Assembly: GCA_000092065.1 (NCBI GenBank)
Contig: CP000595.1
Source of the DNA: Ostreococcus lucimarinus
Lineage: Eukaryota
Strand: one strand, 5' to 3'
Length of the DNA: 64,000 nucleotides
Part shown: positions 875-35,634 of the stretch, one piece after another
Layout: the number at the start of each line of letters is the position of its first letter
How positions within the stretch are numbered: the stretch's first letter is position 1
The notes under the pieces: model-generated
Databases searched by the model: none
What the model was told of the DNA's origin: nothing
Seen by the model: the letters and a program-made list of their open reading frames with translations, nothing else
Translations under genes and position numbers: made by a program

Positions 875-3800
875 TCAAAGTGGTTCGCCGTCTTTCAGGC
901 ATTTGTCGATGTGCGCGTTAATGGTTTCGCTTTTCGCGCCTTCCGGAAACTGTTCGCCGCAGATGCAGCATTCTGCTTTCGTCCGTTTATTCGCGTTTTC
1001 AGTGAGATCGAAGAACGGCTTCTTCGGTTTGTCTTGTTGAACCGCGGTGACACCGACGGCTTGGTGAGATCGTTTTGACGAAGCGGCGTTTGTCGCCGGT
1101 TTCGCCTTCGCGGCGGCGCCGAAGAAATCCACAATCGTCTTCGTCTTCCGAAAGCACTTCGCCCTGGAGGCTGCGTCTACCGGGGTAGGTGCTTCGATCG
1201 ACACACCTAAGATGGCGTTCATATTTTCGTCGCCGTCGCCGTCACCGCCATCCAACAAAGCGAGCGACTCCGGAGTGGAGAATTTTTCTGCCCATTGAAC
1301 TTCGATGCTTTCCTTCACGTGCGCAAGCAAGGTCTCGGGATATCTCAAACCGATGACTTTGCGGCCAACTTCGTCGACGACACGCACCGTGCGCATGCCG
1401 CGATCGGCCTTATTAAACTTGTGCGCGTTTCTATCCAAAGTTCGTTCGAGCTCTCCCCAGCAAGGCACGACGGCGCCGCTGATCACGGTGCAGTCAACCG
1501 TGCGTTTGCCCGCGGTACAAGCGCCCATGGTTTGTCGAACGTGACAATTCACGCCGTGCATGCAATGCTTCTCGGTCAATTCGTGCACAAGATCCCACGG
1601 TTGTTTCGCCACGTCGGGCGTGCACATCATGTATTTGCCGCGCAATTCGTCGTACTCCATCTCGAAAAGACTTGCGCCGGTGTTCGGACGCCACAGCATG
1701 AACAAGTTTCGCGAACCTGGCTTGGTGATGGCCAGAACGACTTGCGCGCGCCCATACATCTCGCGCTTCATCTTGTAGAAGCCGTCTCGATCGTGATTCT
1801 TGCTCTTTTCCAAAATATCCAGCGCACGCTCAAACGAAATACCGCGATCTATGAAAACCTTGGTCGACACGAGTTTTTGTCCGTGGTACGGATCCTTAAG
1901 AATCGTCTTCGACTCTGGTTCGATGCGAATGGAAGAACCACCGAGATCGCTCACGCCCTCCGTGTACTTCCCCTCAGCCTTTGCTAATTTGATTTCGCAA
2001 TCCAAGGTTTCAGCAAAGTATGCAAACATGATATTTTGCGTTCGCACCGGAAGTCCAAGTAGGCGATTGAGAAACTTGCGCACGTCGCCGAGATCTTTGT
2101 TGCCGTATCCAATTTCCTGCAGCAGCGTCGCTTCTTCGACCGAAAAGCCGTCATTTCGCAGTCCAACCTGCACTCCGAGCTCCAATAACGCTGAACGAAG
2201 TTCAAGCTTCAAATCCTGCCAGCTCGAGATGGGTTTCCCCTCGAGATCGTCGTCGTTCACATGCGACATGATGCCCTCGAGCGTGACGCCCGACGGGAGA
2301 TTCGCATCGAGCGCGACGAGCGCCTCGTAGAGCTTCTTCAACGCGTGTCGCCCGAGTGACGAGTCGAGATTGCCATCGGATAAATCAATGCCAGTCGCCG
2401 CACGTCGATCACCTCTCGTCAACGCCCCGAGACTTTGCAAGCGTCGTGCGACGGCGGCGACGAAGCGTCTTTCGCCTCCGATATTCGTCGAGCACATCAC
2501 GTACACTGGACCCGTAATCTGATTGGATCGATGCGTGCGACCGAGCTGCTGAATCGCCTTGTCCGCACTCCATGGAAGTTCTATCGTGACGTGCACGCGG
2601 CGGCGGACATTTTTCGCGCCTTTCGACGCGTGCAATGAAATCCCGGTACTAGCCGCGTCCGAAATTATGGCCACACGTTTGTCACCATTCATAAACGCGT
2701 TCTTCTCGGCGATGTTCACTCCGAGCACATCACCGTCGCCGCTGATGCTCGTTCCTTTTCTAGACGCCGTCGTGCCACGCGATTCGTACATGAGCCTATC
2801 GCCTCGACGCACGATGCGACCGCTTCTTCCCGTGAGTTCGGCAACTTCTGTCGGCCCTCCGAGCCCATCAATCAGAGCATCGAGAAAGTTCGGCGGTAAC
2901 CTCAACTTGATGACTTTATTGATCAACTCTTCCTTAGCGTCCACGAGCTCTTCGTCGACCTTGGCTGGGGCATTCGTGTGAAAACGACCAGTGTAGCCTT
3001 CGCTCTCTACCTCCGCGCCGCCTGCACGCCTCCAATCGCTCGACCAATCGGAAGGCGCCGACTTTTCCGCCGCCGCTCCGTCTGAAGCGCCGTGGATTTC
3101 AGTCGGAAAGTGCACGTTCAAGAAATTGACGAGCATTTCGCGCGTCGTACTCAGGAACCCGAACTCCGTGACGTCTTCACCAAAAGTCAAGTTGGCTGAC
3201 GCATCTTGAGACTCACCTGTCGTTTGCAACCCGATGACGACGCATTGCTCTCGCGCGAGCGCCTCGTTCGCCTTGGCGATGACCGCCGGAACTTTCATGC
3301 TGATGCACAAGAGCTTGAAGAATCTTTGATGGACGCTCCAATACGCACTCCAAACGCCTTTTCCATCGGAACCAGTTCGACGCACAGCTTCGATACACGC
3401 ATTACGGATGAGCGACATCAAGTCGCACGCGTCATCGTACATTTGACGCTGCTCTTTGCTGAGCGCGATCGTGTACTGCTCAAACTCTGCCTGCCTAAAA
3501 GATAAACCTCGACTAACATACTTCCCACTTGCCTTCATTTCCATGGCGAGCATTTCTAAAAATCCTACACCGCGAGACTTCATGCTCTCAATGAACGTAT
3601 CCGCGGATTTAAATGGCGTCCCTTTGCCCCAGAAACCGAGTCTGGCCAAGTAGGTCATGTGCCCAACTTCAGAGATACCTGTGGCGCTCGCGTACACAAC
3701 GCGCGCGCGAGGACAGCGTTCCTGAAACGCAATCACAGCCGCCGCAACTTTACTACCCGAATCAGAAGACGCGCTAAAGTTCTTTGCCTTGTGGCACTCG

Positions 3801-4651
3801 TCAAAAATCACGACGCCCTCGGCGTCTTCGCCGCCGAACCAATTTACGATTTGATCGAGACGACTCTTCTTCTGCGTCTTGCTCACTAACGTGCTGTAGG
3901 TGGTAAACAACACGCCCTCTTGATACTCTTTCGATAACCCGAACGCGCGAGTTTCGCGATCGAGCTCTGGGCACGAATTAATAACCTTAATAGTGCTTCC
4001 CAAATCGCTCAAGTCGCGCTCGGCGTCTCGGTGTAAATCGCCCGAGCTCGATATCCAAACCGCTTTCCGACGGCCTCGCACGAAATTATCGATAATAATT
4101 CCACTAATTTGTCGTCCCTTGCCCACCCCCGCACCGTCGCCAATCATGAAACCCGAACGCTTGCCATCCGGCGCGAATTCGCAGTGCTTTTGACACGCGA
4201 ACATGACACCCTCCAGTTGGAGCTTGCTCAGTTTTCCAGTCTCCACGAAATCGTCGCCGATGGCGTCAAATAAAGGATACTTGGCCGGTGGTAAATCGAT
4301 GCTCGCCAGCGACGCGGCTTCGGCGATATCTCCCGGGTGTACGCGTCCTCTCTGCGCCCGTCGATGAAATAATATATGCCCAGTCAGTCGTCGGTTTTGA
4401 ATCATCTTGCAAAAGCATCCGTCTCGACGCGAACGTGCGCGCGCGCGCCGTACCTCGATGGAGTGACACGTGTATCCGCTGAAAACTTCACCCACGACCT
4501 CGCTCACGGACTCCTGCGCCCCTAACCCATCGTTCCCGCGTTCGCTCGACGGAAGGCCGTCGTGCGCGCGCGATGCCGACAGCTCGACGTCGTCGCCACC
4601 GTTCGTCGTCGTCGTCGTCGTCGCGCGCGCACCGCCGTCCTCGCTGGACAT
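875..4651 (-). CDS. Strawberry-notch (SBNO)-like DExD/H helicase with C-terminal Rad18-type UBZ4 zinc finger
   Basis: ORF 875..4669; the first ATG is at 4651 (the ORF-track start codon is GTG). Motifs FMIGDGAGVGKGRQISGIII (P-loop) and VVIFDECHKAKN are characteristic of SBNO. The C-terminal CCICGEQFPEGAKSETINAHIDKCL matches the UBZ4 pattern of RAD18/WRNIP1 (CPVCGVNIPESHINKHLDSCL). Confidence 0.85.
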   Translation of the reverse strand: MSSEDGGARATTTTTTNGGDDVELSASRAHDGLPSSERGNDGLGAQESVSEVVGEVFSGYTCHSIEVRRARARSRRDGCFCKMIQNRRLTGHILFHRRAQRGRVHPGDIAEAASLASIDLPPAKYPLFDAIGDDFVETGKLSKLQLEGVMFACQKHCEFAPDGKRSGFMIGDGAGVGKGRQISGIIIDNFVRGRRKAVWISSSGDLHRDAERDLSDLGSTIKVINSCPELDRETRAFGLSKEYQEGVLFTTYSTLVSKTQKKSRLDQIVNWFGGEDAEGVVIFDECHKAKNFSASSDSGSKVAAAVIAFQERCPRARVVYASATGISEVGHMTYLARLGFWGKGTPFKSADTFIESMKSRGVGFLEMLAMEMKASGKYVSRGLSFRQAEFEQYTIALSKEQRQMYDDACDLMSLIRNACIEAVRRTGSDGKGVWSAYWSVHQRFFKLLCISMKVPAVIAKANEALAREQCVVIGLQTTGESQDASANLTFGEDVTEFGFLSTTREMLVNFLNVHFPTEIHGASDGAAAEKSAPSDWSSDWRRAGGAEVESEGYTGRFHTNAPAKVDEELVDAKEELINKVIKLRLPPNFLDALIDGLGGPTEVAELTGRSGRIVRRGDRLMYESRGTTASRKGTSISGDGDVLGVNIAEKNAFMNGDKRVAIISDAASTGISLHASKGAKNVRRRVHVTIELPWSADKAIQQLGRTHRSNQITGPVYVMCSTNIGGERRFVAAVARRLQSLGALTRGDRRAATGIDLSDGNLDSSLGRHALKKLYEALVALDANLPSGVTLEGIMSHVNDDDLEGKPISSWQDLKLELRSALLELGVQVGLRNDGFSVEEATLLQEIGYGNKDLGDVRKFLNRLLGLPVRTQNIMFAYFAETLDCEIKLAKAEGKYTEGVSDLGGSSIRIEPESKTILKDPYHGQKLVSTKVFIDRGISFERALDILEKSKNHDRDGFYKMKREMYGRAQVVLAITKPGSRNLFMLWRPNTGASLFEMEYDELRGKYMMCTPDVAKQPWDLVHELTEKHCMHGVNCHVRQTMGACTAGKRTVDCTVISGAVVPCWGELERTLDRNAHKFNKADRGMRTVRVVDEVGRKVIGLRYPETLLAHVKESIEVQWAEKFSTPESLALLDGGDGDGDENMNAILGVSIEAPTPVDAASRAKCFRKTKTIVDFFGAAAKAKPATNAASSKRSHQAVGVTAVQQDKPKKPFFDLTENANKRTKAECCICGEQFPEGAKSETINAHIDKCLKDGEPL

Positions 4652-4865
4652 GACGACGACGAGTCGCACGTTCGCGATTGAACCGTCGCCGCGGTCACCG
4701 CGCTCGCGATCACAGCGCGCGCGCTTCTATGTCGGCAGTCTGGGGCGCTGGCGTCATCGGCGTCCATCGGTCCGCACACGACGCCGCACACGTCCGCACA
4801 CGACGCCGCCGTTCGGTGCGAAACCGTCGCGATAGACGACGACGACGACGAGGACGATCGTTCGT

Positions 4866-5315: not shown

Positions 5316-5421
5316 ATGCGCGGGGCGATAGCGCGAGAGTCGCGTCGTCGTGCGAACATGTCCGACGCTCCCGCTTCGTCGACGGCGTGGTGGCGTCGTC
5401 GCGAGCTCCTCGCGACGCGCA

Positions 5422-5462
<41 letters not shown>

Positions 5463-6869
5463 GCAGAGGAGGAGCGGCTCGCGAATGATGCGAAAGCGCG
5501 AGTTCAAAGCGGCGTTCTGGCGACGTTCGCGACGTGGTTCGATCATCGAGGCGGAAAAATACACGAAAGGGTGCGCATGACGTACAGACCGAATTTCGGT
5601 TGGTCGCTCGAGGCGGACGGTGACATCGCCGACGGCGAGAGGCTCGTCTCTCTGCCGCCGAAACTCATGTTGCGGTGCGACTCCGACGACGTCAGCGAGC
5701 CGCTGAAGAACGTCGTCGATCGAGTGCCGAACGAATTTTGGAGCTCGAAAGTAGGCTTGGTGCTGCTTCGCGAGCGCGTGGCCGGCGCCCACTCGGCGTT
5801 TGCACCATATATCACGCTCCTTCCTGCGGTACACGAAGGCTCGCCCACGTTTTTCCCGCCGGACGCCGTTCGAGCGCTGGAATACGCTCCGATCGTACAG
5901 CAAATCAATAAGCGTGCGCGATTCCTCGGTACTTTCGCTGGAAACGCTCTAACGGTGGATGATGGCGAGAGTTACGTCGACGAAGCTCACCCTGGGCGAC
6001 AGCGCGTGGAGATGACGATTGACGCGAACGCGCTCGGATGGGCCACTGCTTGCGCGAGCAGCAGGGCGTTCAAGGTTGGTGCGAACTCGGCTCCGGCGAT
6101 GCTTCCGGTCATAGATATCTGCAACCACTCGTTCAATCCATCCGTCAGTGTGCGGGCTATCGAAGAAGGCGACAACGCCGGTGGCGTCGAGTTGATTGCT
6201 CGACGCGCGTTGACGTCCGGCGAGCCCATAGAGTTGAGCTACGGGAACTTGTCCAACGACGAGCTATTGCTCGATTACGGATTCATAGTCAAAGACAATC
6301 CGTTCGACTGCGTGAAACTCAGGTGGGACTTAAAGCTCATCGAGCTCGCTCGCGAAATCGGAGGCTTAGCCGCAGCACCGATCGGTGCGGCGACGAGCGA
6401 GTCGGCGAGCGAATCCGCGACGCATCTAGACACCGTCGCGAAGGTGGCGCCTTGGCAAGCGACGGCGCTTGAGAGAATTGGATTAGTCGGAGATGACCCG
6501 AACGTTGAGTTAAGCGTGTTCGGCGCGGGTCAAGTGATGGATAAAAAGGCGCTCGCGGGCCTACGCGTGTTATATTCGAAATCATCGGCGGAGGCTTCGC
6601 GCGCGGCGGACGCGCCGTTCGGCGAGATTGACGCAGACGTGGTTTCGAAGGATACGGAAATCAAAGCTCTGCGCACGTGCATGTCTCTTTTGGCTTTGGC
6701 GCTCGGCAACTTCTCGACGACGCTCGAGAAGGACGAAGAGTTACACGACGCCGCGACGTCTCCGCAAGTGAGGTTAGCCATCGCTTTTCGCATGGAGAAG
6801 AAAAAAGTGCTGGCGAAGAGTATGGCACGCTTAAACGAATCGATCGAGCGTCTGCAGAGAGACGAGTAG
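5316..6869 (+). CDS. SET-domain protein-lysine methyltransferase, Rubisco LSMT-like
   Basis: SET motifs NHSFNPSV...ELSYGNLSNDELLLDYGF and an LSMT-like C-terminal substrate-binding region. ATG at 5316. Confidence 0.75.
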
Positions 6870-34593: not shown

Positions 34594-35634
34594 TCAGCGC
34601 AGTGGCGTTTTAGAACCAGAAACTTTTTGCACATCTATATACTTGAGGTTTCCTATTTGGATGTTTCCTGCGGACTGCCAATCCCACTCATACAAAAGAA
34701 TGCTAAGTACAGACTGATCGTATCGGTGCACAATATATTCTGTTGAAGGTGGGCCTTTGCGTGGTTTCGTCAGCTTACGACTGGATCCTGGAGGTGCCAT
34801 GCAAGAAAGACAGTTATGCACGCCGCATGCTATCCAAGGCGCGAGAACTGTCTTGTAAACATCCGACTGGAGGTTCGCTATCCAATATGTGGCAGCTATC
34901 TCCGTAAAGTTTTTGAATTTCGTACGGTCGACGTTCAGATAAGCATAAGTGGCGGGGTGTGTGTTCACCCCCATACCCAAAGCACCCAAACGACCGGCGA
35001 ATCCCACACCATCTTCGAGCACGTGAGACACCCACGTTTCCGGGTTTCCAAGGAAACGTGTTGAAGAATCTGCCCACATGAAAGCATCCAGGTCGTCAAA
35101 CACACGTAAAAACATCTGCACTACACGTGGTTTAAAACAGTACGTGTCTAAACGCTCTTGCTCTTCTATCACTAACGTCTGCAACTTGATCTGCGCCTTT
35201 ACTTTTTTCAATTGTAGCTTGTACTTTTGCAATAACCTGAACTCCGCATGCGCCATATCCAACGCGTCAACCTTGTGCATGTAGTATACAGAAACTATCC
35301 CACCATACCGGCTGTCTGCTAGAGAGCGCAGCATATCGAGATTTTCAGCGGCGTGGTTCGATGAGCACGCTGTCACTATTGCAAATCTGACTGTCTTGGC
35401 GCGAGTCCTGTGGCCGAGTCCTAAAATAAATTGAGGCCTGTGAAAAGCCAAATATCCCAACAATAACAGGAGCAGCGTGTTCAAGTGCGTACACGCCCTG
35501 AATTTCCACCGGTCTGCTTGGTCGTCGCCCCTGAATTTCCACCAGTCTGCTTGGTCGTCGCCCGCGAACCCGGCTTTCACCATCCCCGACCCGTTATCGC
35601 ACACCAGCGCGGACAGTTCGCCCTCATCCGCCAT
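34594..35634 (-). CDS. Chimeric gene: actin N-terminal 27 aa fused in frame to a type-II-membrane nucleotide-diphospho-sugar transferase-like (GT-A fold, PF03407/GT77-like) protein, inside a low-GC island
   Basis: The N-terminus [27 protein letters not shown] is identical to actin and encoded by duplication copy B. It is followed by a 31-bp tandem duplication ([21 protein letters not shown]), a TM anchor [14 protein letters not shown], then [23 protein letters not shown]...[22 protein letters not shown] (DxD...W...NP as in Nucleotid_trans). Local GC is about 48 % against about 68 % in the flanks. The non-actin part has no independent ATG upstream of the TM segment. Confidence 0.5.

Follow-up and report, generated by a model that had tools for sequence, protein, structure and literature searches.

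The first gene inward from the telomere on Ostreococcus lucimarinus contig CP000595.1 (assembly GCA_000092065.1) encodes a member of the Strawberry-notch (SBNO) family of superfamily 2 (SF2) ATPases, and here we describe a predicted ubiquitin-binding zinc finger at the extreme C-terminus of this protein. The window, by which we mean the whole 64,000-nt stretch of DNA that was analysed, opens with a telomeric array of (CCCTAAA)n at 1-200 (28.7 copies according to Tandem Repeats Finder), which lies outside the gene, and the SBNO coding sequence is located at 878-4651 on the minus strand, with its stop codon at 875-877. The gene is a single uninterrupted open reading frame (ORF; 875-4669, minus strand), and translation from the ATG at 4651 gives a protein of 1258 aa that terminates in ...KAECCICGEQFPEGAKSETINAHIDKCLKDGEPL, the residues before the stop reading ...NANKRTKAECCICGEQFPEGAKSETINAHIDKCLKDGEPL*; the length and C-terminal residues given for an SBNO-like protein in a preliminary description of this DNA agree with the translation. 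The same description had called it the first gene after the telomere, which holds. The only ORF between array and gene is an unsupported 82-codon ORF starting with GTG, and none there is convincing. The preliminary description had put the gene end 675 bp from the array, and the adjacency stands while the distance from the 200-bp array to the stop codon measures 674 bp.

The family assignment follows from three Pfam domains that are matched in order and each from end to end, all encoded on the minus strand: the AAA_34 P-loop ATPase lobe (aa 105-406, 3434-4339; E 5.8e-120, 400 bits), the Helicase_C_4 lobe (aa 588-902, 1946-2890; E 6.5e-96, 322 bits) and the SBNO alpha/beta domain (aa 938-1050, 1502-1840; E 1.5e-17, 64 bits). 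Because the ORF is uninterrupted and all three domains are matched over their full length, neither a frameshift nor an intron is indicated in the gene. A search by sequence for a solved structure of any SBNO relative found none, and an AlphaFold model was computed for aa 100-1258 with 58 homologues (predicted local distance difference test, pLDDT, 79; predicted template modelling score 0.72). The solved folds nearest to the predicted body are the Swi2/Snf2-type motors RapA, Mot1, Ino80, Sth1, ALC1, CSB and ISWI (E ~1e-8), and the modelled SBNO core looks like a Swi2/Snf2-type DNA translocase. The model is ordered up to ~aa 1178 and disordered over aa 1180-1224, after which the finger forms a separate, confidently predicted unit (pLDDT 83).

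This finger, TKAECCICGEQFPEGAKSETINAHIDKCLKD (aa 1224-1254, 890-982 on the minus strand), has the predicted zinc ligands C1228, C1231, H1247 and C1251 in the spacing C-x2-C-x15-H-x3-C, which falls within the ligand order of UBZ4 fingers, C-x2-C-x(11-15)-H-x3-C. Six positions (C, C, N, H, D and C) show no variation across 36 non-redundant homologous tails (alignment A1), and the finger is present in 47 of 58 full-length homologues, all 47 of which keep the same six residues. When the 51-aa tail alone was compared with all PDB chains, the top match was the UBZ of RAD18 (E 0.0068), and all matches after it were ubiquitin-binding zinc fingers too, those of TAX1BP1 and WRNIP1. A profile made from A1 and searched against PDB chains gave similarity across the entire finger, with matches to POLK UBZ1 and UBZ2 (6.6e-9 combined), RAD18 (1.1e-6), TAX1BP1 (2.5e-6), WRNIP1 (4.1e-6) and FAAP20 (7.8e-5); POLK was the best match overall, and RAD18 and WRNIP1 were the best single-domain matches (30.8 and 29.6 bits). 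C2H2 fingers occurred among the profile matches as well, aligned to the CxxC knuckle alone, and the best Pfam match of the tail was zf-BED, at 16.9 bits versus a cut-off of 20.6 (E 0.0068). Both observations would suit a finger of a generic C2HC/BED-like type, with nucleic acid or some other protein as its partner in place of ubiquitin. We regard such a generic finger as improbable: the C2H2 and BED matches are limited to the knuckle or lie below threshold, RAD18 and WRNIP1 have the same helix signature N-x-H-x-D-x-C-[LIV], invariant here, and the same terminal Cys, and in sister lineages a UBA domain takes the place of the finger, as set out below.

AlphaFold, run on the tail with A1, predicted a beta-beta-alpha fold (pLDDT 80), with two bridge residues followed by a 14-residue helix (residues 22-35), and the 15 best neighbours found by Foldseek in the PDB were all ubiquitin-binding zinc fingers (FAAP20, TAX1BP1, WRNIP1; template modelling score 0.6-0.7, root-mean-square deviation ~1 Å), so that structure prediction, one of the checks put forward in the preliminary description, supports its proposal. 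For the WRNIP1/RAD18 class it has been reported that Pro21-Val22 in the beta-loop contact Ile44 of ubiquitin and that Asp37 in the helix contacts Arg42 (PMC4370504). The tail keeps both the hydrophobic pair and the helix Asp, the predicted contact residues being C1229-I1230 and D1249. The equivalent of D1249 is invariant in all finger-bearing homologues, and the pair between the first two cysteines is Pro-Ile or Pro-Val in most of them, Cys-Ile in Ostreococcus and Phe-Ile in some Micromonas-like sequences, always hydrophobic and never charged. Taken together, the profile search, the predicted fold and the kept ubiquitin-contact residues support the assignment of the tail as a CCHC finger of the UBZ4 (RAD18/WRNIP1) class. 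The UBZ4-type match proposed in the preliminary description thus stands by profile, fold and contact residues, with one correction: the stretch from knuckle to helix is four residues longer than in RAD18; it is within one residue of both POLK UBZ domains, which have x14 spacing in the profile alignment.

A search of 1.84 billion cluster representatives returned 10,127 matches, the best 150 of which were scanned with our own hidden Markov models (HMMs). The closest named relative is the protein of Ostreococcus mediterraneus (73% identity), Ostreococcus relatives range from 73 to 81%, and Micromonas follows at ~52%. Most of the 120 best homologues carry a finger of the same C-x2-C-x15-H-x3-C pattern at the extreme C-terminus, among them proteins of Ostreococcus, Micromonas and related picoalgae, of many invertebrates, namely molluscs, echinoderms, cnidarians, amphioxus and the sponge Sycon, and of one euglenozoan, Entosiphon, a sequence for which contamination is possible. 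The preliminary description had named a tail both absent from orthologues and not covered by transcripts (e.g., if a frameshift or intron altered the C-terminus) as grounds for dropping its claim; orthologues do share the finger, including the transcriptome-derived homologues of O. mediterraneus (MMETSP) and Entosiphon (a Trinity protein). As to its question whether SBNO proteins of other Viridiplantae share this tail, the answer is divided. Among Viridiplantae, the Mamiellophyceae were the one group in which the finger was found. In core chlorophytes (Coccomyxa, Chlorella, Trebouxia, Bryopsis, Volvox and others) and in a pedinophyte the protein ends in a UBA domain and lacks the finger, and streptophytes have neither. 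The UBA was confirmed by Pfam (46.9 and 39.8 bits versus a cut-off of 22.4) and sits after a conserved motif (motif 1, described below) and a variable linker, in the same slot as the finger. Two unrelated ubiquitin-binding folds in one slot are, in our view, the strongest indirect evidence that the slot serves to bind ubiquitin. A pattern scan of a collection of bacterial and archaeal contigs matched 21 stretches, none of which encodes a relative.

The ends of the remaining family members have a feature of their own. Many members without UBZ or UBA end in an acidic sequence of the type [VI][VI][DE][IL]D, e.g., IVIELD, IIEID or VIHIIDD, which resembles SUMO-interaction motifs. Such endings occur in 14 of 150 representatives versus 2.05 expected from internal windows (binomial p 2.5e-8, for a regular expression chosen post hoc). 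The homologues with acidic endings are P0050, P0053, P0059, P0063, P0065-P0067, P0132, P0135, P0138, P0143 and P0151, and further P0192, P0197, P0211 and P0212; P0066 has a UBZ plus a SUMO-interaction-like ending.

The tail marks a lineage of its own. In a neighbour-joining tree with midpoint root (28 sequences, 935 columns, 200 bootstraps), clade A, formed by the tail-bearing proteins including the window protein, was split in 200 of 200 bootstraps from a clade B with Drosophila Sno, lamprey SBNO and the PHD-type streptophyte proteins of Marchantia, Chlorokybus and Mesostigma; C. elegans LET-765, human SBNO1/2 and Arabidopsis FGT1 were not among the sequences. The UBA-tailed proteins of core chlorophytes fall in clade A, and the two genes of the mollusc Nucella lapillus are divided between the clades. 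The HMM scan found finger, linker and motif 1 all absent from Drosophila Sno, lamprey SBNO and the second N. lapillus gene, and likewise from the PHD-finger proteins of Marchantia, Chlorokybus and Mesostigma; the streptophyte clade-B proteins have an internal PHD finger. As judged from this tree, the window protein is an old paralogue and not an orthologue of the Sno/SBNO proteins of the Notch/EGFR pathway, nor of the sampled PHD-type streptophyte proteins; the root and the loss of one copy per lineage, drawn from a simple neighbour-joining tree, are tentative. The preliminary description had read the gene as a UBZ4 fusion against the background of the Notch/EGFR-pathway SBNO proteins, and on this point it has to be revised: the fusion is no one-off, and the finger is a hallmark of an old, separate paralogue clade. 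Animal clade-A proteins (P0069, P0070, P0096, P0098-P0100, P0109, P0115 and others) carry the NCBI label 'FORGETTER 1-like'. Because the sampled PHD-type streptophyte homologues group with Drosophila Sno in the other clade, the tree suggests that this naming is misleading and implies an orthology that it does not support.

That SBNO proteins are usually described without a ubiquitin-binding module, as had been stated beforehand, matches the searchable literature on Sno, SBNO and FGT1, in which the finger is not mentioned. No paper combining 'strawberry notch' and 'UBZ' and no study of clade A was found. The FGT1 paper gives helicase, Helicase C and PHD domains only (PMC5040591), and a 2025 paper on SBNO1, a member of the other clade, and genome stability attributes the effect to Yeats4 expression (PMC12289961). 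The observation at the end of this gene is confirmed: the finger exists and has been kept in organisms as far apart as picoalgae and invertebrates, its functional reading is plausible, and it belongs to a conserved but apparently undescribed domain architecture, being no oddity of this gene.

Several observations weigh against a ubiquitin-binding UBZ4 finger. The Pfam scan of the tail returned no UBZ family, so the HMM comparison with UBZ profiles suggested in the preliminary description came out negative; orthologue tails reached UBZ_FAAP20 only below threshold (16-19 bits versus a cut-off of 25), and no RAD18/WRNIP1-type model was among the Pfam families returned for the tails. Because the profile search against the PDB is clear, we treat the missing Pfam match as a library gap and no evidence against UBZ. 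The Foldseek E-values for the 39-residue model (0.5-2) are not significant because the domain is so small, and the beta-beta-alpha fold is a prediction. In the Ostreococcus sequence CCIC, the Pro of the contact pair is replaced by Cys, which possibly adds an alternative ligand. Ubiquitin binding by clade A is a prediction, and UBZ-like fingers differ in how they bind ubiquitin: a third group has been described that has neither of the known sets of contact residues and whose binding mode is unknown (PMC4370504), a point that would also favour the generic finger discussed above.

The last of these observations is that the finger is absent from a close relative, P0003, which is 81% identical, keeps motif 1 and an FFDL motif, and ends in ...RGRVQKERREDGSRRAVL*. 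None of the three forward frames downstream (L002, 5780-6071) encodes a finger, and the contig stops ~100 nt further; a frameshift as the cause of the loss was rejected on this basis. Either at least one lineage can do without the finger, or the P0003 contig is faulty. P0003 could also be taken to mean that the tail of the window protein is itself an artefact, be it a Cys/His pattern arisen by chance, a read-through or an error of assembly or gene calling at the 3′ end, which in this genome is called from the DNA sequence. Against this, the ORF is uninterrupted, and an independent metagenome contig in ENA carries a near-identical gene call of 1258 aa, listed as 100%, which shares both the tail and the neighbouring gene. 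The finger is, in addition, kept in dozens of non-redundant homologues from several eukaryotic groups, transcriptome-derived ones included. Judged by this conservation, the artefact is effectively refuted, and we give it hardly any weight.

Upstream of the finger, two further regions bear on where a UBZ4-class finger might take the motor. Motif 1, EAPTPVDAASRAKCFRKTKTIVDFFG (aa 1153-1178, 1118-1195 on the minus strand), is a pattern of 26 residues, E-x-x-T-P-V-D-x-K-x-x-x-K-A-x-x-x-P-x-T-[ILM]-x-x-F-F, the end of which resembles a PCNA-interacting protein (PIP) box. It is ungapped and nearly invariant in 58 clade-A homologues from algae to animals, its conservation equals that of catalytic residues (F1177 in 58 of 58, F1176 in 54 of 58 with Tyr in the other four, T1172 in 53 of 58), and it was seen only in clade A, not being detected in the named Sno/SBNO and PHD-type representatives. 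The PIP-box-like stretch of the window protein is TKTIVDFF, which has no Gln but keeps the [ILM] and FF of a PIP box. The motif is predicted to be structured, with a pLDDT of ~90 and then 65, and by this model may belong to the fold rather than act as a free peptide motif; as a free PIP box we downgraded it on account of the pLDDT of 65-90 in the full-length model. It is followed by the linker (aa 1180-1223, 983-1114, minus strand), ~45 poorly conserved residues with many gaps that are predicted to be disordered (pLDDT 30-42 over model residues 1081-1125, i.e., full-length residues 1180-1224). Within the linker lies motif 2, QQDKPKKPFFDLT (aa 1205-1217, 1001-1039, minus strand), a basic patch with FF that is located 10-25 residues ahead of the finger. 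The animal homologues have K-[KR]-x-K-Q-x-x-[IL]-x-x-x-F-x-K at this position, and the protist representative P0133 has a canonical PIP box, QKSLLSFF-AKRR. The version in the window protein, DKPKKPFF, has Lys at the hydrophobic position 4 of the PIP box and is degenerate. Several protist family members terminate in x-x-[ST]-[ILM]-x-S-F-F-x-K-K (the homologues of motif-2 type are P0133, P0135, P0194, P0200, P0215 and P0249).

These motifs raise the possibility that finger and upstream FF motifs recruit the ATPase to mono-ubiquitinated PCNA at stalled forks, in the manner of Spartan, SNM1A, Pol kappa and ZRANB3; recruitment to ubiquitinated PCNA or chromatin had been suggested in the preliminary description. 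The solved fingers nearest to the tail, those of RAD18, WRNIP1 and POLK, belong to DNA-damage-tolerance factors, and the strongly conserved FF in T-[ILM]-x-x-F-F at the end of motif 1 recalls the PIP boxes of Pol eta and Pol kappa, which are likewise non-canonical. The forms of motif 2 in animals and in P0133 point the same way. Precedents are SNM1A, which binds ubiquitinated PCNA through a UBZ4 finger and a PIP box (PMC11199599), and Spartan, which is reported to be a PCNA-interacting protein (PMC4269170). Motif 1 may, on the other side, be buried, given its predicted structure, and motif 2 of the window protein has the Lys at position 4. FF peptide motifs bind promiscuously, and no meaningful link between Strawberry notch and PCNA was found in the searched literature, papers on strawberry notch with RAD18 or PCNA giving incidental co-mentions only. 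The PCNA proposal is one particular form of the reading that we prefer, a ubiquitin-binding finger tethered to an Snf2-like motor, with PCNA as one of several possible targets; as a specific answer we hold it to be possible but doubtful.

Another such target would be a histone that carries ubiquitin (H2Bub1 at active genes, or H2Aub), with the finger directing a remodeller-like motor to chromatin for transcription-linked work. To our knowledge, ubiquitinated histones are not usually read by UBZ4 fingers, RAD18 at H2A-Ub excepted. [quoted passage not shown] With a histone-reading PHD in the streptophytes of clade B and a ubiquitin reader in clade A, both clades would have a reader of chromatin marks, and the core resembles the motors of nucleosome remodellers. 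The swap with a generic UBA suggests a plain read of ubiquitin, with specificity coming from elsewhere in the protein. The proteins of clade A are paralogues, and function is not simply transferable to them from FGT1 or Sno. We hold histone reading, too, to be possible but doubtful as a specific answer.

The arrangement can be compared with known systems. With the UBZ4 fingers of RAD18 and WRNIP1 (PDB 2MRE, 5VF0, 3VHS, 3VHT), the window finger shares the CCHC ligands, the predicted beta-beta-alpha fold, the hydrophobic pair between the first two cysteines and the helix signature I-N-x-H-[ILV]-D-x-C-L with the Asp that contacts Arg42 of ubiquitin; it differs in the four extra residues between knuckle and helix, in the Pro-to-Cys change of Ostreococcus (CCIC) and in its placement on an SBNO ATPase, not on a RING ligase or an AAA+ ATPase, and its ubiquitin binding is a prediction. 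The POLK UBZ domains (PDB 7NV0) are closer in spacing and sit in a disordered C-terminal region alongside FF-type peptide motifs; POLK has two fingers, the window protein one, and the catalytic domain of POLK is a Y-family polymerase. ZRANB3 is, like the predicted SBNO core, an SF2/Snf2-type motor. Spartan/DVC1, SNM1A and ZRANB3 also combine a catalytic domain with a disordered region that holds a ubiquitin-binding zinc finger and FF-type motifs (PMC11199599; PMC4269170). In contrast to these three, the PIP-like motifs of the window protein are non-canonical and putative, one of them is predicted to be structured, and the motor belongs to the SBNO (AAA_34/Helicase_C_4) family. Drosophila Sno, vertebrate SBNO and Arabidopsis FGT1 have the same three core Pfam domains and are presumably nuclear and chromatin-linked (PMC5040591), whereas the sampled clade-B proteins lack motif 1, linker and finger, those of streptophytes having a PHD finger instead. 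The nearest in layout are the UBA-tailed SBNO proteins of core chlorophytes, which belong to the same clade and have motif 1 and the same order of body, linker and ubiquitin-binding module, the module being a three-helix UBA (Pfam, 40-47 bits) and not a zinc finger.

At the locus itself, nothing was found that ties the function of the SBNO gene to its telomeric position. The spacer between array and gene (201-874) contains no tRNA and no Rfam match, and a repeat finder detected no significant repeat family in it. Its GC content is 0.54, and it has an isolated telomere-like CTAAACCCTAG at ~566-576 as well as two alike GGGAGG-CGC-TTCG-GGG stretches (~208-226 and ~591-607). The next gene inward (5316-6869, plus strand) encodes a methyltransferase with SET and Rubisco-substrate-binding (Rubis-subs-bind, LSMT-like) domains, an assignment taken from the Pfam families of the corresponding ENA contig, and the order of SBNO and SET methyltransferase genes is identical on that independent contig. 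The SBNO gene (878-4651) is low in G+C, with a GC content of 0.55 and a G+C content at third codon positions (GC3) of 0.63, compared with a GC3 of 0.67-0.82 in eight other long ORFs and with 0.617 for the whole window; an ORF at 34594-35634 is lower still (GC 0.50, GC3 0.55).

The explanation that we consider likely, from sequence comparison and modelling, is that the window gene encodes an Snf2-like SBNO motor with a tethered finger of the UBZ4 class that binds ubiquitin. C1228, C1231, H1247 and C1251 would hold one zinc ion, the C1229-I1230 pair would contact the Ile44 patch of ubiquitin and D1249 in the helix would contact Arg42. The flexible tether would let the finger capture ubiquitin on a nuclear substrate, with PCNA at stalled forks or a histone as candidates, and the motor would thereby be recruited or retained there. 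Zinc binding, ubiquitin binding, the identity of the target and any role in DNA damage are steps that we infer. More speculatively, and with a good deal less confidence, clade A as a whole might be a second ancient SBNO lineage of ubiquitin-guided DNA translocases. A reader slot at the C-terminus, occupied by UBZ4 in Mamiellophyceae, invertebrates and the euglenozoan, by UBA in core chlorophytes and, in stramenopiles, possibly by motifs of SUMO-interaction type, would bring them to ubiquitinated PCNA or nucleosomes.

What Strawberry-notch proteins do biochemically is poorly defined, and they are usually described as helicase-like co-activators that act with chromatin remodellers. The findings presented here indicate that an entire sister lineage carries a conserved, predicted C-terminal ubiquitin reader in which UBZ4 and UBA are exchangeable, and that its motor is probably directed to ubiquitinated proteins of chromatin or the replisome. 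They also correct the annotation habit by which animal clade-A proteins are labelled as FORGETTER 1-like. None of the sampled vertebrate, insect or streptophyte sequences falls in clade A, and a true absence of the clade from model organisms, if borne out, would account for its having been missed by genetics. Ostreococcus tauri is genetically tractable.

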